A DNA stretch of 64,000 nucleotides, from NCBI GenBank assembly GCA_963843575.1, contig CAWJKZ010000019.1, positions 128,001 to 192,000 on the forward strand, written 5' to 3'. The DNA comes from an uncultured Acidobacteriota bacterium. GTDB lineage: Bacteria; Acidobacteriota; UBA6911. Both the position numbers and the translations under genes were made by a program. Below are positions 2,569-49,054 of this stretch, one piece after another (position 1 is the stretch's first letter; every line of letters starts with the position of its first letter). The notes under the pieces are model-generated. The model saw only the letters and a program-made list of their open reading frames with translations. It did not search any database and was not told where the DNA came from.

Positions 2569-4071
2569 ATGAAGCGATTCTACCCCGTAGCCATCCTTTT
2601 ACTCGCTGTTTGTTCGATCGGGCCATCGACCGGCTGCGCCGCCCGTCCGCCGGCGCGCCCGGTGGCGCCGGCGCAGGCCGTGGACGCGCTGGGGCAACTG
2701 CGCCAGGACCTGGCGCGCGTGTTCGACGACGTCAGTTTCGGCAACGCGCAGTGGGGGGTCGAGATAGCCTCGCTCGACAACGGCCAGGTGCTTTTCGAAC
2801 GCCACAGCGCCCGGCTCTACATGCCTGCTTCCAACAACAAGCTCCTGACGGGCGCTGCCGCGCTGGTCCGGCTGGGCCCCGACTTCCGGTTCCAGACGCG
2901 CATCATGACCGACGGAACCGCTTCCGGCGGAGTGTTGCGGGGCAACCTCGTCGTGGTCGGCGCCGGCGATCCCGCCACCGCCCCGCGGTTTCACGGGGGC
3001 GACCCGTTCCGGGTCTTTCGCGACTGGGCGGGGCAATTGAAGCAGAGAGGCATCTCGCGCATCGAGGGGAAGCTCGTCGGCGACGACGGAGCCTTCGCAG
3101 AACCGCCGGTCGGCCGCGCTTGGGCTTGGGACGACCTGGCCTACGGTTACGCGGCCCCGGTCACCGCCCTCCAGTTCAACGAAAACCTGCTGACCCTCGA
3201 GGTCACCCCGGGACCCGCCCCCGGGACACCGGCCGGCGTCAGGGTCCTGCCTGTGCCGGATTTCCTGAACGTGGAGGCCTCCGTCACGACCGCGGCGGCC
3301 GGCACCCTCCCCAACCTCGATCTGCTCCGCGGCGAGGGCGAAACCGTGCGGGTGGCCGGCACGGTGCCCGCAGGCGGCGCGCCCGTCGAACGCACGGTCG
3401 CGGTCCGCTCGCCTGCGCATCTCTACCTGACGGCGTTGCGCCGCGTCCTCGATGAGGAGGGCATAGCGGTTGCCGACGGCATCTCGGCGACGCGCAACTC
3501 GGATCTTTCTCACCTCACGATGCTGTGGAGCCACGCGTCGCCCCCCCTTGCCGAGATCCTCAAGCCCCTCCTCAAGGTCAGCCAGAACCTCTACGCCGAA
3601 ACCATGGCCCGGACCATGGGTCTGGAGGCCTCGGGGTCGGGGAGTTTCGCAAAGGGCCGGGAAGTCGTCGAACAGGTGCTCGGGCTCATGGGGATAGAGC
3701 GGGGCGGCTACGCCTATGCCGACGGTTCCGGTCTGTCGCGGCTGAACCTGGTCAGCGCGGACCTGGTCGTCCGGCTTCTGAAATACATGCATCGTCACCC
3801 CTCTTTCCCGCAGTTCTACGACGCCCTCCCGGTCGCCGGGGTGGACGGCACCATCGCCGAGAGAATGAAAGGCACTCGTGCGGCAAATAACGTCCGGGCC
3901 AAGACCGGCACCCTCGCGTACGTGCGCTCATTGTCCGGATATGTGGAGACGGCCGACGGCGAGACGCTCGCTTTTTCGATGATCGCGAACAATTTCCTGG
4001 TTTCCTCGGCGTCGGCGGAGTACGTCCAGGATACGGCGCTGCAGCGGTTGGCCACGTTCAGCCGGAAATGA
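2569..4071 (+). CDS. dacB: D-alanyl-D-alanine carboxypeptidase/endopeptidase (PBP4, peptidase S13)
   Basis: Signal peptide MKRFYPVAILLLAVC; PASNNK (SxxK), SQN (SxN), DGSGLSR and AKTGT (KTG). Confidence 0.93.
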   Translation: MKRFYPVAILLLAVCSIGPSTGCAARPPARPVAPAQAVDALGQLRQDLARVFDDVSFGNAQWGVEIASLDNGQVLFERHSARLYMPASNNKLLTGAAALVRLGPDFRFQTRIMTDGTASGGVLRGNLVVVGAGDPATAPRFHGGDPFRVFRDWAGQLKQRGISRIEGKLVGDDGAFAEPPVGRAWAWDDLAYGYAAPVTALQFNENLLTLEVTPGPAPGTPAGVRVLPVPDFLNVEASVTTAAAGTLPNLDLLRGEGETVRVAGTVPAGGAPVERTVAVRSPAHLYLTALRRVLDEEGIAVADGISATRNSDLSHLTMLWSHASPPLAEILKPLLKVSQNLYAETMARTMGLEASGSGSFAKGREVVEQVLGLMGIERGGYAYADGSGLSRLNLVSADLVVRLLKYMHRHPSFPQFYDALPVAGVDGTIAERMKGTRAANNVRAKTGTLAYVRSLSGYVETADGETLAFSMIANNFLVSSASAEYVQDTALQRLATFSRK

Positions 4072-6727: not shown

Positions 6728-6880
6728 GGAGTGCGGCGCCTCGGCGCCGCTTTCCGCTCGTCCTGCGGCAGGAATGCTCGGCGCCTCGGCGCCACGCCGG
6801 AATGCGAGGTTGCAGCCCTGCGACTTACAGCCTGAGGCGGCGCCGAGGCACCGCCAAAGCGGCGTCGAGCCGCCGCACTC
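6728..6880. repeat. Repeat family B (GGAGTGCGGCGGCTCGACGCCGCTTT REP-like doublet)
   Basis: Inverted termini ggagtgcggcgcctcggcgccgcttt and ccaaagcggcgtcgagccgccgcactc, with related copies elsewhere in the window. Confidence 0.85.
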
Positions 6881-7039
6881 GACGATAAACGTTGGACAGC
6901 CCCTTTCAGCCCGGAGATTTTCTGCGGTCGCCCTGCCAAGCCCGCGGCGACGGTCGAAAGAGAGCCGGGGAATAGATGCTATCTCTGGGGCCGCGTCGAG
7001 CCGACGCGGCCCACTTTCTTGGACAGTGGTTCGTGAGGG

Positions 7040-33350: not shown

Positions 33351-33391
33351 TTGTTTTGCGGCGGCCGACCGCACCGTGATAAACATGAACC

Positions 33392-34740
33392 GTGGACCTG
33401 TTCGAGCAGCGCAAGATCTACTCCGTCTTCGAAATCACGTCCGAGATCAAGAGGACCCTGGACCGCATGGGAGTCCTGTGGATCAAGGGAGAGATATCGA
33501 ACTTCAAACACCACTCCTCCGGCCACATGTACTTCTGCCTGAAGGACGAGCGCGCGCAGGTGAAGGCGGCGTGTTTTCGAGGCAGCAACGCCTACCTCAA
33601 ATTCCGCCCCGAAGACGGGCTTGAAGTGCTGGCACGCGGGCGCCTGAGCGTCTACGAGCCGCGCGGCGACTACCAGGTGCTCGTCGATTACATGGAGCCG
33701 GTGGGTCTGGGTTCGCTCCAGCTCGCATTCGACCAGTTGAAGGAGAGGCTCCGCCGGGAAGGCCTGTTCGACGAGGCCCACAAGGTGGCCCTGCCCCTGC
33801 TGCCGGGCAAGGTCGGGATCGTCACATCGCCCACCGGCGCCGCCATCCGCGACATCCTGCGCATCCTCAAGAGGCGGAACGCCTCGCTTCACGTCCTGCT
33901 CTACCCGGTCAAGGTGCAGGGCGCGGGCGCCCGCGACGAGATCGCCGCCGCGATCCGCTACTTCAACCAGCGCTCCGACATCGACGTGATCATCGCCGGC
34001 CGCGGCGGCGGATCGATCGAGGACCTCTGGGCATTTAACGAGGAGGTCGTCGCGCGCGCGATCTACGCCTCGGACGATCCCGGTCATCTCGGCGGTGGGC
34101 CACGAAGTGGACTTCACGATCGCCGATTTCGTCGCCGACCTGCGCGCCCCCACGCCCTCGGCGGCGGCCGAGATGGTGTCGGGTGCGCGCGAAGACCTGC
34201 GGGCGACCGTGACGTCCTTGCAGGGGAGGCTGTCGCAGGCGATGATGCTCGGCTTCGAGAGGCGCCGCTCGGCGCTGGATCGACTCTCCCGCAACCGCGC
34301 CTTCATCACCGCACCCAACCGCGTCAAGGAACTGCAGCAGAGGTTCGACGAAGCGGCGCTGCGCATGAACCAGGCGATGGAGCGCTACCTCACGAGGCTC
34401 GGGCGCCGGCGCGAAATCGCCCAGACGCGCCTCGTCAGGCTCGACCTGCGGAAGGCGATCGCCCATCGGCGCGAAGTTCTCGCGCGCAACCACCAGGGGT
34501 TGACCGCCTGCATGCGGGCCCGGCTGCGCCAGGAGCGCGCCCGTCTCGCGCTGGCCGCCGGCCGCCTGGACGCGCTCAGCCCGCTGGCCATCCTGCAGCG
34601 CGGCTACGCCATCTGTCGCGACGAAAACGGGGCAATTCTGCGGGACGCTGCCGCCACACAGCCGGGCCGCCAGGTCGGAATCAATCTGGCCCGCGGGAGT
34701 ACTCCGCTGCCGGGTCGAAGATGTGGTCGAGTCCCCTTGA
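33392..34740 (+). CDS. xseA: Exodeoxyribonuclease VII large subunit, frameshifts near 34078 and 34696
   Basis: [61 protein letters not shown] and [11 protein letters not shown]. Confidence 0.93.
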
Positions 34741-34829
34741 TATTGTTCGGGTCCCCGGCGCCTTCGAGGTGACGAGTTCCTTGACCGGATCGAAGGGCCC
34801 CGAGGTTCGAACATTGGAGCGTAGTTATC

Positions 34830-36552: not shown

Positions 36553-37335
36553 TTGAGCCCGCAAAAACGGCGCATCGACGTGCTGCTCCTCGAGCACGGT
36601 TTCACGGAGAGCCGCCACAAGGCCCAGGCCCTGCTGCTCGCGGGGAAGGTCCTGGTCGATGGGCAGAAAGTGGAAAAACCGGGGCAACTGGTCCGCCCGG
36701 ACGCCGATGTCCGTCTTCTTGGACAGGAGCGCTTCGTCAGCCGCGCCGGCGCCAAGCTGCAGGCGGCGCTCGACGCGTTCGCCCTCCAGGTCGCCGGCCG
36801 AGTCTGCGCCGATCTCGGAGCCTCGACCGGCGGGTTTACCGACTGCCTGCTGCAGAACGGCGCCGCCGCCGTGCACGCCTACGACGTCGGCCTCGGGCAA
36901 CTGGACTGGAGGCTGCGCTCCGATCCCCGGGTCGTCGTGCACGACGGCTTCAACGTCCGCCACCTTACCGGCAGGGACCTCCCGGACGGTCTCTCCGTGG
37001 TCTGCGCCGACCTCTCGTTCATATCCCTGACGAAGGTCCTCGCGCCGCTGCGCGACGCCCTGCTGGAGCAGCCCCCGCACGGCGGGCCCGGCGTGGTCGA
37101 CGTCGTTCTGCTCGTCAAGCCGCAGTTTGAGGTCGGCAAGGGCCAGGTGGGCAAGGGGGGCATCGTGCGCAGTCCCGAGAAAAGAGCCGAAGCCGTCGAA
37201 GCGGTGACGGCCTTCTCACGGGGCGCCGGGTACCAGCCGCGCGGCAGCATCCCTTCACCCATCGCGGGCGCGAAAGGGAATCAGGAGTTTTTGTTGTACC
37301 TCCAACTCCCACCTGATCTATCATCCCCCGCATGA
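36553..37335 (+). CDS. tlyA: TlyA family rRNA 2'-O-methyltransferase
   Basis: S4-like RIDVLL, FVSRAGAKL, DLGASTGGFTDCLLQ, DLSFISL, VKPQFE and GAKGNQEF. Confidence 0.93.
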   Translation: MSPQKRRIDVLLLEHGFTESRHKAQALLLAGKVLVDGQKVEKPGQLVRPDADVRLLGQERFVSRAGAKLQAALDAFALQVAGRVCADLGASTGGFTDCLLQNGAAAVHAYDVGLGQLDWRLRSDPRVVVHDGFNVRHLTGRDLPDGLSVVCADLSFISLTKVLAPLRDALLEQPPHGGPGVVDVVLLVKPQFEVGKGQVGKGGIVRSPEKRAEAVEAVTAFSRGAGYQPRGSIPSPIAGAKGNQEFLLYLQLPPDLSSPA

Positions 37336-38186
37336 ATTTGCCCGTCGCCAGAGTGGGGCTGGTTCTCAAGCGTCACGATCCCCGCGTCCCCGCAATTGCC
37401 GCCGAAATCATCCCATGGCTGCAGGCGAAAGGGGTCGAGGTCTTCCTGGACCATGAGTCCGCGCGCCTGTACCCGAACTGCACCATCGCGGCCCCGGAAG
37501 ACTTGGCCGGCCGAGTCGACGTGGTCGCCGTCTTCGGCGGGGACGGAACCCTCCTTTATGCGGCGCGCCTGGTCGCGCCAAGCGGCATCCCGATCCTCGG
37601 CGTGAACCTGGGCTCGCTCGGATTTCTCACCGAGGTCAAGATCGAGGAGATGCGGCAGGCGTTCTCCAGGCTGCTCTCGGGGGAGTATCTGCTGGAAAGC
37701 CGGATGCTGCTCGAGGTGGAGGTGTACCACGGAGGGCGCTGCGACCGGTATCTCGCCTTGAACGACGCGGTTATAAACAAGGGGGCGCTCGCCCGGATCA
37801 TCGAGCTCGAGGTTACCGCAAACGAGGACCCGGTTATGCTGATCCGTGCCGACGGGCTGATTATTTCGACCCCGACCGGCTCTACTGCTTACTCGCTGTC
37901 GGCGGGCGGACCCATCCTCTATCCGACCCTGGAAGCGTTCATCATCACGCCGATCTGCCCGCACACGCTGACCAACAGGCCTGTCGTGGTCCCCGACGGC
38001 ATGGTCATCGGCGTCTGCCTGCGCCACGGCGCCGACGTGATGCTCACGGTCGACGGCCAGGTCGGGGTGCCGCTCGGAGCCAACGACCTGCTGAAGATAC
38101 GGAAGGCCGTTCCTTTTGTCCGACTTGTGCAGGCCACCGGCACGAGTTTCTTCCGTCTGTTGCGTGAAAAGCTGAAATGGGGTTGA
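37332..38186 (+). CDS. nadK: NAD kinase
   Basis: GGDGT, GVNLGSLGFL, ALND and DGLIISTPTGSTAYSLSAGGP. Confidence 0.96.
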   Translation: MNLPVARVGLVLKRHDPRVPAIAAEIIPWLQAKGVEVFLDHESARLYPNCTIAAPEDLAGRVDVVAVFGGDGTLLYAARLVAPSGIPILGVNLGSLGFLTEVKIEEMRQAFSRLLSGEYLLESRMLLEVEVYHGGRCDRYLALNDAVINKGALARIIELEVTANEDPVMLIRADGLIISTPTGSTAYSLSAGGPILYPTLEAFIITPICPHTLTNRPVVVPDGMVIGVCLRHGADVMLTVDGQVGVPLGANDLLKIRKAVPFVRLVQATGTSFFRLLREKLKWG

Positions 38187-38377: not shown

Positions 38378-38458
38378 GTGGAGTGCGGCGGCTCGACGCC
38401 GCCAGAGACCGGGGCTGCAAGGTCGCAATCCGGTGTGGCACCGAGCCGCCGCACTTCC
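38378..38458. repeat. Repeat family B copy
   Basis: gtggagtgcggcggctcgacgccgc ... ccgagccgccgcacttcc. Confidence 0.8.
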
Positions 38459-38577: not shown

Positions 38578-39171
38578 TTACCGGAAGAGGTCGATCCCCA
38601 TCCTGCGGCACATCCGGTCGAAGAGGGCTACGGGGAAGCCCACGATGTTGAAGTAGCATCCCTCGATGCGGTCGATGAACAGGGCTGCGAACCCCTGGAC
38701 CGCGTATCCCCCCGCCTTGTCGCGGTACTCGCCCGTCGCGGTGTACCAGCGGATTTCGCGGTCGCTCAGGCGCCGGAAGTGCACGCGCGAGCGGCTGAAC
38801 CCGGACCTGAGCCGGCCGGAGGCGCAATCCAGCAGCGCGAGCCCGGTAATGACCTCGTGCCAGCGTCCGCTCAGCGCGCGCAGCATCGCGGTAGCCTCGT
38901 CCCGGGATCCGGGTTTTCCCAGCACGGTCTTTCCCGCGACCACTATGGTGTCCGCCCCGACGACGAGCCCCGAGCGGCGGCTGCCGGCGACTTCGCGCAC
39001 CTTGATGCGCGCCACGCGGACCGCATACGCCGAGGCCGTCTCGCCCCGCCGCGGCGGCGGTTCGGGAAGCGAACTCGGCTCGACCGCAAAACCGAGTCCC
39101 AACCCGTGGAAGATCTCCTCGCGCCGCGGCGAGGCGGACGCCAGCACCCAACGGCTGCTGCTTGTTGTCAT
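38578..39171 (-). CDS. maf: Maf/YhdE nucleoside triphosphate pyrophosphatase
   Basis: VLASASPRR, GADTIV, LGKP, DKAGGYAVQG and NIVGFP. Confidence 0.95.
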   Translation of the reverse strand: MTTSSSRWVLASASPRREEIFHGLGLGFAVEPSSLPEPPPRRGETASAYAVRVARIKVREVAGSRRSGLVVGADTIVVAGKTVLGKPGSRDEATAMLRALSGRWHEVITGLALLDCASGRLRSGFSRSRVHFRRLSDREIRWYTATGEYRDKAGGYAVQGFAALFIDRIEGCYFNIVGFPVALFDRMCRRMGIDLFR

Positions 39172-39244
39172 CAGGGTATCTCTCTGCTAAGTTAGGATCG
39201 CCGTCACGGCTCGGTCCCGCGCGCGGCCATTTTTCGACCCGTTC

Positions 39245-40277
39245 ATGAAACAGACACTCGGCATTGCCGCCCTGTCGTTCCTGCTCGTTGCCCGGTTCTG
39301 CACCGCATCCGGCCCCGCGCGGCCGCAGGCGACAGCACCGGCGGCACCGGCCACGACGTTCCCGGAAAAGCTACTGGAGGGGGAGCCCGATTTCAACCTC
39401 GCTTTCCTCATCCAGGGCGACCTGCGCGGGAACTACGGGCCGTGCGGCTGACCGATCAACCCGATGGGCGGTTTCGCCCGCAGGACAAGCTACTGGAACG
39501 CCTTCGCCAGGAAATACCCGGAGCGGCCCCTGCTTGCGGCTCGACGGAGGCTCGTTCTTCACCCTCGGAGTAGCCGAGGCTGCCTCAATCAACCGCTGGA
39601 TGCTCGAGGGGACATACCGGTCGCGCCTGGATGCGCTCAACCTCACGGCTTGGGACCTCCCCGCGTGGCAGGAGATGTGGGACCTGGCCGCCGCAGGTCA
39701 GCTGCCGCGCCAGTTCCTCGACCTGCCGCTCGTCTCCGCGAACGTGAAGGCGAAGGCACCGAACTTTCCGGCTCTCCGGAAGTTTGTCTTCAAGGAGCTC
39801 GTCGTCGACCCCAAGTCCGGGACGAAGCTGCGCGTCGGGATCAGCGGCGTGCTGTTCGACCCGGAAGAGCGCATCTCCCGCGAGGAGTTCAACGTCAAGG
39901 ACCCGCAGGAAGCCGTCCGGCAGGTCGTTGCCGAGATGGAGCCCGGCAGCGACTACCGGATTATCATGATCGACGCGGGCGTGGGCAAAGCCATCAGCCT
40001 GGCCGCCGTTGTCCCGGGCATTAACCTCATCATCGTCGCCCACAACTACGAGGAGATCCTGGAACCACAGCAGGTCGGCGACACCCTGATCTCGGTGCCC
40101 GCCAACGAAGGCCGCCTGATCAGCGAGGTCCGGGTGTCGTTTCAGCAGGGATCCCAAAGCCTCGGCGTGCACACCCGTTTCGTCCCCCTGGACCGCTCCG
40201 TCCCGGACGACCCGGAGATGAGCGCCCTGATTCGCAAGGCCCAGGCGGACGTCGACGAATTCAAGCGAGCCCGGTGA
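39245..40277 (+). CDS. Exported UshA-like (5'-nucleotidase/metallophosphoesterase fold) candidate selenoprotein with a C-G-U motif; one frameshift near 39533
   Basis: Signal peptide, then GDLRGNYGPCG-TGA(39449-39451)-PINPMGGFARR in the same frame. After the shift: LDGGSFF, DALNL, PLVSANV, INLIIVAH, NEGRL and VPDDPEM. Confidence 0.8.
39465..39480 (+). promoter_or_regulatory. Bacterial SECIS-like hairpin
   Basis: Stem (t)gggcg/cgccc(g) with loop GTTT beginning 19 nt after the in-frame TGA; the loop starts with GU. Confidence 0.7.
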
Positions 40278-40570
40278 GCGCCCGTATGCAACCCGTCTCT
40301 TCCGTAATCTACTCGCTGTTCCGCGGTTCCCCCCGGCACGACGAGTGGGTCGTCGCCTGTCTCGAGGGGGCTTGGACGGGGCTTCTGGGCGAGAGGCTGG
40401 CTACCGCGTGCAAGCCCGTCCGATTCGAGCGCTCCAGCCTTCTGGTCGAGGTGCTGGACGAAGCCTGGATCGAACCCCTCCGCTCATGTTCGGCGGAACT
40501 GCTCGCCAGGATCCGCACCGCCACAGGCGGCGAGGTTCAGTGCGTTGATTTCAGGCTCCGGCCCTACTAA
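40274..40570 (+). CDS. DUF721 / DciA family protein
   Basis: AWTGLLGERLATACKPVRFERSSLLVEV..AW..L pattern; GTGA overlap with the upstream stop. Confidence 0.7.
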   Translation: MSARMQPVSSVIYSLFRGSPRHDEWVVACLEGAWTGLLGERLATACKPVRFERSSLLVEVLDEAWIEPLRSCSAELLARIRTATGGEVQCVDFRLRPY

Positions 40571-40580
40571 ATGGTTCATT

Positions 40581-40630
40581 CTGGAGTGCGGCGGCTCGAC
40601 GCCGCTTTGGCGTCGGCGCCTGGGCGCCGC
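40581..40630. repeat. Repeat family B single unit
   Basis: ctggagtgcggcggctcgacgccgctttggcgtcggcgcctgggcgccg. Confidence 0.85.
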
Positions 40631-40765
40631 ACAACTATGGGTTTTGACGACACCGCCTCCCCCCGATGCGCCGATGATTACCCAGCCCCCTCTCCCCAAG
40701 CGTTGTCTCTAATGCTATTATCAAACCGGCCCGCAATTTTAACGCTTGCAGTTCTGGAGAACAGG

Positions 40766-47153: not shown

Positions 47154-47206
47154 GGGTCGGCGCCGAGGCGCCGACCCCAAAGCGGCGTCGAGCCGCCGCA
47201 CTCCAG
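47154..47206. repeat. Repeat family B unit with adjacent hairpin
   Basis: gggtcggcgccgaggcgccgacccc-aaagcggcgtcgagccgccgcactccag. Confidence 0.85.
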
Positions 47207-47276
47207 ACCGCAAATCGGCATTCTTCGGGGCGCGTGAATTTGGTATTATTCCGGCACTCAAATCCAGGCGAGTGGT

Positions 47277-49054
47277 ATGCCCCTGTACTCTGACGGTGTG
47301 CTAGACGAAGTGCGGAATTCCGTCAACATCGTGTCGCTCGTCTCCGAATATGTCGCGCTCAAAAAGCGCGGCCGGAATCACGTCGCCCGGTGCCCTTTCC
47401 ACACCGAGAAGACCCCGTCGTTCAACGTCAACGAAGAAAAGCAGATCTTCATGTGCTTCGGCTGCGGCGTCGGCGGCGACGTCTTCAAATTCGTCATGCA
47501 GGTCGAACACCTGACCTTTCCCGAGTCCGTGCGCTTCATCGCAGAACGCTACGGGGTCGCGCTGCCCCAGACCGCCGCTCCGGCCGAGGACGGCGGGGGC
47601 AGCCGAGCCGCTGCGCAGGGCCATGGCGGAGGCGTGCAGCTTCTTCCACCGCCTGCTGCTCGAATCGGAGGAGGGGCGCCCGGCGCTGAAGTACCTGGAA
47701 GGGAGAGGGGTGACGCGGGCAACGATCGACCGCTTCGCCCTGGGTTACTCGCCGGCCGACGGCAATGGGCTCACCCAGGGCCTGTCGAAGCTCGGCATCG
47801 ATGCGGCCTTGCTCGAGCAGTGCGGCCTCACCAAGCGCTCCGAGGACGGGAAACGCCTCTACGATGTGTTTCGGGGGAGGGTCATGTTCCCCATCACCGA
47901 CGTGCGCGGCAGGGTGATCGCCTTCGGCGGCCGGGCCATGGGTGACAGGCAACCGAAGTATTTGAATTCCCCGGAGACGAGGCTCTATAATAAAAGTCGC
48001 AACCTTTTCGGCTTGTATTTCTCCCGGGAGGGAATCAAGCGTCTGGACTTCGCCGTGCTGGTCGAAGGCTACATGGATTTCGTGGTGCCCTTTCCAGCAC
48101 GGGATCGAGAACCTGGTTGCTTCGCTGGGAACGAGTCTGACTCCCCAACAGGTCCAACTGCTCGGTCGGTACACTCGCGAGGTCGTGGTGAGTTACGACC
48201 CTGATTCTGCGGGCCTTGCCGCGACGCAGAGGTCGCTCGATCTTTTTTTGGAGGAGGATTTTCGAGTCAGGGTACTTCGCCTGCCTGACGGTCAGGATCC
48301 CGACGCCTTTATAAGGAAGACAGGGGCGGCCGAATACCGGGACCGATTGCGCGCGTCCACACCCTACCTGGACTTCGTGCTCGATGCGGCAATTCACAGC
48401 CAGGGCAGTCTGGATAACCCCAGGAATAAAATACAGGTCATAAATGCGGTTCTGCCGTACCTGGCCAAGTTGCCGAACGCTGTGGAGCGATCCGACTACG
48501 TATTCCGGTTCGCCCGCAGACTGCGCATCGAGGACCAGCAGTTGCTGGCGGAAGTGAAGCGTGCCGCCCAGCAGAAACGAACCCGGCTTACCGAGGCCCC
48601 GCTGGCGTCCCTCGGGGCCATGAAGTTCGCGGAAAAGCGACTCCTCCAGGTGCTGCTGGGCAATACGTGCGCTCCAGTCGGAGATCCTGCCACTGTGCTC
48701 CGAGCGGGTTTTCGACGGGTTGGCGACCGAGAAGATTTTCGCCGTGATCACTGGAGGAGCTCCGCAGCAGCCGGATTTGCACGTTCGACCTTCTACAGAG
48801 CCGCTTCGCGGGTCAGCCCGAGCAGGCGCTCGCCGCGCAGCTGCAGATGGAGGAAGTCCCGGAGGACCTGTCGCGCGACGCCGCGGAGAGCTGCTACAGC
48901 GCGCTGCTCGCGCTCCGGCTCGCGCACGACAAGCAGGAGATCCTCAGCCAAGATCGACGACGCGGTGCAGCGCAAGGACGACGAGATGCTCAACCGCCTC
49001 ATCGAGCAGCGCGTGCTCGTCGATCGCGAACTGGTCAGCCTGTCCAGGAAATAG
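47277..49054 (+). CDS. dnaG: DNA primase, several frameshifts (likely sequencing errors)
   Basis: [11 protein letters not shown] and CFGCG zinc finger, [30 protein letters not shown] and GQDPD. Confidence 0.95.

Follow-up and report, generated by a model that had tools for sequence, protein, structure and literature searches.

The stretch of DNA analysed in the present study, hereafter the window, comprises 64,000 nucleotides from an uncultured Acidobacteriota bacterium (assembly GCA_963843575.1, contig CAWJKZ010000019.1, positions 128,001 to 192,000 of the forward strand), and one of its loci raises a simple question: does the TGA at 39449-39451 end a short open reading frame (ORF), or does it specify selenocysteine (Sec) within a longer protein? 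The ORF from ATG 39245 reads MKQTLGIAALSFLLVARFCTASG...FPEKLLEGEPDFNLAFLIQGDLRGNYGPCG and ends in ...GDLRGNYGPCG-TGA, and its frame continues beyond that codon. A preliminary description of these letters had recognised an in-frame UGA in a C-G-U motif and had suspected an exported selenoprotein. Taken jointly, the observations are best explained by one gene at 39245-40277 on the + strand, which, as judged from sequence, very probably encodes a secreted selenoprotein of about 343 residues. Its elements are as follows.

39245..39313, + strand: start codon and N-terminal signal peptide (MKQTLGIAALSFLLVARFCTASG), from the translation, with the cleavage site placed by eye
39314..39448, + strand: mature N-terminus FPEKLLEG...FNLAFLIQGDLRGNYGPCG, with the first beta-strand and the Cys of the C-G-U motif, from amino-acid conservation
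39449..39451, + strand: in-frame TGA, read as Sec, a codon that 42 of 43 related loci share at this column
39452..39529, + strand: first frame beyond the TGA, PINPMGGFARRTSYWNAFARKYPERP, including PINPMGGFARR, from translation and alignment
39461..39484, + strand: hairpin CC..UGGGCG-GUUU-CGCCCG..GG resembling a selenocysteine insertion sequence (SECIS), from RNAfold
39530..39533, + strand: frame break, four bases (ctgc) for one codon of the family, from a 23-row alignment
39534..40274, + strand: remaining coding sequence in the second frame, LRLDGGSFFTLGVAEAAS...DEFKRAR (from LRLDGGSFF onward), the body of the metallophosphoesterase-like domain
40275..40277, + strand: stop codon TGA, which overlaps a dciA-like gene at its GTG start (40274)

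The Sec reading of the TGA was examined in 43 related loci fetched as DNA, of which one came from a sampled genome of the phylum, nine from the species-genome collection (all labelled as Acidobacteria, Acidobacteriota or Terriglobia metagenome-assembled genomes, MAGs) and 33 from metagenomes; some are near-duplicates, and distinct 90-nucleotide (nt) contexts number 32. When the loci were walked upstream in the frame of the match, GDxRG[NS]xGPCG-TGA-[PS]xxPxGGFARR was observed in frame at 42 of the 43, so that the C-G-U motif, the ORF end and the continuing frame of the preliminary description are present in the window as described and are kept by the family. Upstream of the TGA, 42 of the 43 loci also carry FPxxLLxGxxxF[ND]hAh (the FNLA..GDxRG region) behind a signal-peptide-like N-terminus, which is basic and then hydrophobic in all orthologues despite its varying sequence and which forms a helix followed by a disordered linker in an AlphaFold2 (AF2) model of the orthologue L062. 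In the five codons 5' of the TGA, F-G-P-C-G is kept and the third bases vary (for Gly, C15, G9, T4 and A4 of 32), which indicates that the upstream part is under protein-level selection. The codon could also be inspected in other sequence data, as had been suggested: an independent soil-metagenome contig (X2 record 7, 210 nt, corresponding to 39262-39471) keeps the TGA, and its single difference, A>T at 39435, replaces Tyr with Phe. Moreover, TGA is the commonest stop in the window, ending 20 of the 34 Pfam-supported ORFs with the gene at 39245-40277 included, and therefore the codon is not reassigned in this organism. On the basis of these comparisons, we read the TGA at 39449-39451 as a selenocysteine codon.

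A search for homologues with Cys or UGA aligned to 39449 had also been suggested, and Cys forms accompany the UGA forms. In P0081, an orthologue of full length, Cys occupies the Sec column (GPCDC). An exhaustive profile search returned 4099 proteins at E<=0.001, 893 at <=1e-10 and 42 at <=1e-30; a simple motif rule placed GGxARR in 56 of the best 150 superfamily representatives, leaving 94 unplaced, and these 56 consist of 40 with CxC, 13 that start at most eight residues from the motif and three with C-G-W, the last probably being TGA read as Trp by a gene caller. At the Sec column, the public translations of P0008, P0015, P0137, P0153 and P0162 show GPGG-G, GPGG-W or PCG-W. A gene caller may have translated TGA under code 4 or 25 to give the W, and perhaps also the G; if this is true, P0008 and P0015 are Sec forms without the partner Cys.

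The Sec machinery that the preliminary description had expected elsewhere in the genome is present in the assembly (6.68 Mb in 27 contigs, 88% complete), with tRNA-Sec, selB, selD and selA all found. The tRNA-Sec scores 74.6 bits and has the anticodon tca in ARAGORN, and SelB scores 373 bits against a cut-off of 242. SelD, matched at 192 and 134 bits and above its cut-off, lies in two frames with one break and itself contains an in-frame TGA (SCAG-U-ASKL). SelA is broken into five or more frame pieces along a 17-kb contig, each below the cut-off, with the FSADKLLGG stretch intact. The last two genes are located as follows.

C13:704799-705723, + strand: selD
C8:2469-3523, - strand: selA

The same genome has a second UshA-like C-G-U gene (C25:146086-147339, - strand; L010:961-2379, - strand), which reads GDLKGNLDPCG-TGA-TQPAMGGVARR and ends in ...WPKIAH-TGA. 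This paralogue, like many relatives, carries four CxxCH motifs, which lie in its C-terminal domain, and it reaches 241.9 bits on the NCBIfam profile NF041198, below the cut-off of 275. When canonical UshA paralogues were sought in this genome, the further NF041198 matches were multihaem cytochromes covering the C-terminus of the profile only.

Bacterial SECIS elements, according to the rules of bSECISearch, are stem-loops just 3' of the UGA with a G (and U) in the apical loop and at a suitable distance. The hairpin gggcg-GTTT-cgccc proposed for this locus was confirmed at its coordinates: its inner arms are GGGCG at 39466-39470 and CGCCC at 39475-39479, its loop GTTT (GUUU) at 39471-39474 stands 19 nt after the UGA, and RNAfold adds a U-G and two outer C-G pairs to the stem, so that the whole hairpin lies 10-33 nt downstream of the UGA. 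Across 30 distinct sequences and eight pairs, 99.6% of 240 cells are paired; as a control, sliding the partners by 1-3 columns lowers this share to 38-50%. Three pairs vary to wobble only and four are invariant. The synonymous sites give stronger evidence for the hairpin than the pairing does. Among 32 sequences each, the stem codons of G-F-A-R are near-fixed (GGC 30 and GGT 2; TTC 32; GCC 30 and GCT 2; AGG 29), whereas the third base of the next Gly, located in the loop, varies (G21, T9, A1, C1), and the loop reads GKUU; outside the stem, Ala at +17 uses GCG 13, GCC 8, GCT 5 and GCA 4 times, and Phe at +18 uses TTT 18 and TTC 13 times. The hairpin coincides with the codons of the conserved P-M-G-G-F-A-R-R stretch. 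Since Cys forms and true 5'-nucleotidases keep the GGxARR peptide as well (2z1a has GGVARR), the RNA element appears to have been built on a conserved peptide and not the reverse.

A second irregularity, an indel near 39533, had been noticed in the preliminary description. In the 23-row alignment, the two pieces of the window gene tile the family with one column left between ...ERP (ending at 39529) and LRLDGGS (starting at 39534); the four bases ctgc at 39530-39533 occupy this place, which amounts to one surplus base, and shortening the adjoining C run at 39527-39530 would restore the frame equally. Both halves align gap-free and at full length with the family, without other stops or indels, and at the equivalent place all 43 related loci stay in frame. 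The essential gene dnaG (47238-48799, + strand) lies in three frames (Zn_ribbon_DnaG at 47238-47942, DNAG_N at 47515-48201, Toprim and DnaB_bind at 47966-48799), and at least two frame breaks in such a gene point to consensus indels of the assembly. Likewise, xseA (33389-34769, + strand) lies in two frames, split at position 104 of the Exonuc_VII_L profile near 34060-34075. Because dnaG, xseA, selA and selD are also frame-broken, the extra base is most likely an assembly error, and we hold with high confidence that it is an assembly indel and not biology, an interpretation that goes beyond the preliminary description. A 151-nt independent contig (X3 record 12) matches 39533-39679 without difference, and its match ends at 39533, four letters before the end of the contig, which fits a difference at 39532. 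Four sequencing runs gave scattered cover, with none across 39472-39532 and none over 40016-40527, so that the extra base was neither confirmed nor removed; no run contained more than 0.13 of the sampled words, and no RNA run was among those listed. Reading through the break by a four-letter step was considered and rejected, since that word also occurs in frame at an earlier point of the gene.

The protein that results is UshA-like in its family and its predicted fold. Its best NCBIfam match is NF041198, 'UshA-like (seleno)protein' (UshA_like_PCGU), on which the two window pieces score 22.8 and 64.4 bits, the second matching profile positions 133-271; the full-length orthologue L062 scores 96.4 bits (positions 22-271) against the cut-off of 275, and P0081 and P0015 about 84 bits. 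On NF049981 (UshA-like selenoprotein family 2), a window piece scores 13.6 and L062 29.4 bits against a cut-off of 140 (profile positions 2-57), and the SoxB profile TIGR04486 gives 48 bits against 550. Pfam assigned no family to either window piece or to full-length L062, Metallophos PF00149 being undetected, and the matches of the second piece in the ESM Atlas were unnamed 'hypothetical protein' clusters of about 220-230 residues. L062, which is 61% identical to the second piece, was used for the fold with the 23-row alignment as AF2 input, and L060 was set aside for this purpose, its own copy being frame-broken. The model of L062 has a predicted local distance difference test score (pLDDT) of 83.6 and a predicted template modelling score (pTM) of 0.82. 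In Foldseek it matches UshA, CD73, SoxB and YfkN with E values of 1e-16 to 1e-14 and template modelling scores of 0.61-0.68 for the query (TMq) and 0.41-0.50 for the target (TMt); the matches cover only the N-terminal domain of the targets, the window protein being without their C-terminal substrate domain. The model thus predicts for the protein the metallophosphoesterase fold that UshA, CD73 and SoxB have at their N-terminus.

The replacement of the metal motifs, also part of the preliminary description, was borne out by alignment to the 5'-nucleotidase 2z1a. The first strand, residues 53-58 of the L062 model, aligns with the motif-I region HTNDTHAHL, which pairs with LQGDLRGNF, so that the Asp is kept and the His becomes Arg (D-x-H to D-x-R); this Arg, R62 in L062 numbering, stands in at least 90% of the alignment rows. 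LDAGDVF pairs with LDGGSIF, with Asp changed to Ser (G-D to G-S), and GGHSH pairs with VAHNY, with the first His kept (G-H-x-H to A-H-N-Y). GGFARR, in turn, pairs with GGVARR in the profile alignment. The motif GNH is absent from all 23 alignment rows and from the 56 superfamily representatives placed by motif. In an ungapped reading from a shared D-A anchor, the GNHE motif of UshA would correspond to (S/T)AWD, which is how the LTAWD of the preliminary description would arise.

Herein, we propose a mechanism to connect these features. SelB and Sec-tRNA would read the UGA at 39449 through the hairpin, and the protein would be exported; with the extra base taken as an assembly indel, the full protein would be made in the living organism. 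The C-G-U loop, which follows strand 1 at the place of the UshA dimetal motif I, might be the catalytic centre and might cycle between a selenenylsulfide and a reduced state. The protein could then be a periplasmic redox or chalcogen-transfer enzyme instead of a phosphoesterase. In the long paralogues, a four-haem cytochrome fused to the same domain would feed electrons, and the short form would use a separate partner; the fusion argues for electron transfer.

The gene as a whole can be explained in other ways, and several observations count against the reading of one intact selenoprotein gene. The gene is frame-broken as assembled, with 39530-39533 unbridged by reads, and selA and selD are themselves broken. 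At one of the 43 loci (L053:2423, in a curated Acidobacteria MAG), the TGA abuts MGGFARR behind an unrelated upstream frame, a state probably caused by a deletion or by a local fault of the assembly. The long homologues P0008 and P0015 (GPGGG and GPGGW) show no Cys and no evident Sec. For the hairpin, no compensatory double changes were found among its pairs in the 30 distinct sequences; its stability of -13.2 kcal/mol corresponds to a z of -0.42, with 67 of 200 shuffles equally stable in RNAfold; and an Rfam scan of 39380-39580, with E up to 10, detected no family. If the TGA were an ordinary stop, a small secreted peptide (39245-39451) would be followed by a cytoplasmic protein from ATG 39464, and gene callers annotate it so: the search with the second piece, which is 49-67% identical to public protein clusters, gave 88 clusters (the window's own included) among 1303 candidates, of which 56 begin with MGGFARR, six with MNP[ML]GGFARR and 23 further in, and only three hold the upstream part. 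Starts just behind the TGA are also the pattern expected if gene callers stop at a Sec codon, and the splitting of the gene by annotation that had been foreseen is thus observed in the 62 clusters that start at M(NPM)GGFARR. Two genes are highly improbable, considering that the first strand of the fold and motif I are located upstream of the TGA, that 42 of 43 loci conserve this part at the protein level and that a single-chain form with Cys is known (P0081); in four of the 32 distinct sequences, the supposed start codon before GGFARR is Leu, Ser or Thr, which rules out a translation restart there. A base-calling error for TGC or TGT would be conceivable in so error-prone an assembly, but the errors observed are indels and not substitutions, and TGA occupies this column in 42 of 43 loci as well as in the independent contig of a near-identical population, so that we give this explanation practically no credence. 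A gene of selenoprotein descent that is dead in this strain, with a real extra base and a product limited to about 110 N-terminal residues, is a more substantial concern. No run spans the break, and the closest relative, L060 (L060:2201-3532, 82% identical), keeps GPCG-TGA-PFNPMGGFARR and leaves the frame after ...DPQEAV, at a site different from that of the window, with the remainder in ORF 2889-3239. Nevertheless, we consider a dead gene rather unlikely: both halves keep their gap-free family similarity, dnaG (at least two breaks), xseA, selA and selD point to consensus errors, and the sole independent contig that reaches 39530-39533 ceases to match exactly there.

Granting an intact gene and Sec decoding, the chemistry may differ from the redox cycle proposed above. 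In one alternative, Sec and Cys would ligate a remodelled single-metal site together with the motif-I Asp and the motif-V His, without a selenenylsulfide pair. D60, H265 and N167 (L062 numbering) hardly vary, whereas replacements are found at the other ligand positions, and a metal could still bind there. CxC and CxU motifs are also known as metal binders, and Sec ligates metal in formate dehydrogenase and [NiFeSe] hydrogenase. The replacement of the motif-I His by R62 speaks against such a site, and the four-haem fusion of the paralogues is compatible with both the redox and the metal-ligand readings. We regard this alternative as unlikely, though deserving serious attention. The redox reading has its own difficulties: the C-G-U loop of the L062 model (residues 64-71) has a pLDDT below 50, its position beside the former metal site was obtained by sequence alignment only, and the Cys-Sec redox centre, like the 'altered chemistry' of the preliminary description, is what we infer from such comparisons. 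A Cys-Sec redox centre is nevertheless the reading that we carry forward, and we tentatively suggest, as a possibility short of an even chance, that in the superfamily, of which the window gene represents a short Acidobacteriota branch, a Cys-x-Sec/Cys pair after strand 1 took over from the dimetal centre, giving a periplasmic redox or chalcogen-transfer enzyme based on selenium or thiol, whose long forms would be wired to a four-haem cytochrome and whose short form would rely on a separate partner. If this is true, a catalytic centre has been swapped from metal to selenium inside one fold, and a selenoprotein family listed without function since at least 2008 gains its first functional handle.

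The genes around the selenoprotein gene are the following.

37317-38183, + strand: nadK
38581-39186, - strand: maf, followed by the selenoprotein gene
40274-40567, + strand: dciA (DciA, PF05258), the start of which overlaps the selenoprotein stop

A scan of 13 related loci, which covered 45 of 75 candidate ORFs after the 30 others, mostly antisense or short, had been dropped, recovered Maf at 11 loci, NAD kinase at nine and DciA at seven. This arrangement of nadK, maf and dciA is housekeeping synteny and names no partner for the protein. Of the 401 genomes sampled from the phylum, 33 give a match at E<=1e-10; at the orthologue level (at least 56% identity) only the genome of the window and G210 are found, the others being at most 34% identical. 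A motif scan of 28 distant loci, made with a crude rule ('longest frame over the centre') that missed several genes, places C-G-U forms across the phylum, some with four CxxCH and others without. The 401-genome tally and the 28-locus scan include an unpublished genome, G049 (L036), and nothing rests on G049 alone. Separately, a 23-nt GC-rich word recurs between genes on both strands of the window (6728-6750, 6859-6881, 38380-38402, 40583-40605 and 47182-47204), in three exact copies and two with 1-2 mismatches, where none is expected by chance; one copy stands just behind dciA, over the start of a 908-residue ORF at 40571. Contigs from three unrelated metagenome runs stack on about 40579-40632, their ends loose at either side, and the word is probably a short dispersed repeat common to many soil bacteria.

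These results have consequences for annotation as well as for biology. Since callers stop at the UGA, 85 of the 88 clusters lack the signal peptide together with the first strand and the loop of the active site. The gene adds a secreted selenoprotein to the Acidobacteriota, which are common soil bacteria, and indicates that this MAG lineage uses selenium. A phosphoesterase fold that has lost most of its metal ligands and carries an invariant C-G-U is, as far as sequence comparison can suggest, a candidate for new selenium chemistry. The window consensus contains several single-base indels, and a gene found split in this assembly is not to be taken as a pseudogene.

[quoted passage not shown] The family is therefore already a listed kind of selenoprotein, which extends the preliminary description, and the passages of PMC2398784 and PMC13188914 concerned give no function for it. 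In the literature on Acidobacteriota selenoprotein nucleotidases and selenocysteine metallophosphoesterases, no description of the present branch was found, and selenoproteome supplements may list it.

Among known systems, UshA (1ush), CD73 (4h1s), the Thermus thiosulfohydrolase SoxB (2wdc) and 2z1a share with the window protein the N-terminal calcineurin-like fold and secretion, and 2z1a further shares the start of the GGxARR helix and the LD-G-G and SAN motifs of the window family. In contrast to UshA, CD73 and SoxB, the window protein lacks most of the dimetal-ligand motifs, GNH and the C-terminal substrate-binding domain. NF049981 resembles it as a short UshA-like selenoprotein with a weak match around the Sec loop, but differs in its CxxU motif, as opposed to CxU in the window, and the score lies below the cut-off. 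The closest likeness is to NF041198, which has the same domain, the P-C-G-U ... GGxARR signature, the loss of the metal motifs and Sec/Cys pairs within the family. The full-length orthologue L062 stays below its cut-off, however, and the window protein ends at KRAR after the N-terminal domain, without profile positions 348-519, which in the C25 paralogue form the four-haem cytochrome domain. The window gene is thus a short, cytochrome-less branch of the published UshA-like CxU selenoproteins, and one that the curated NCBIfam models of UshA-like selenoproteins miss.

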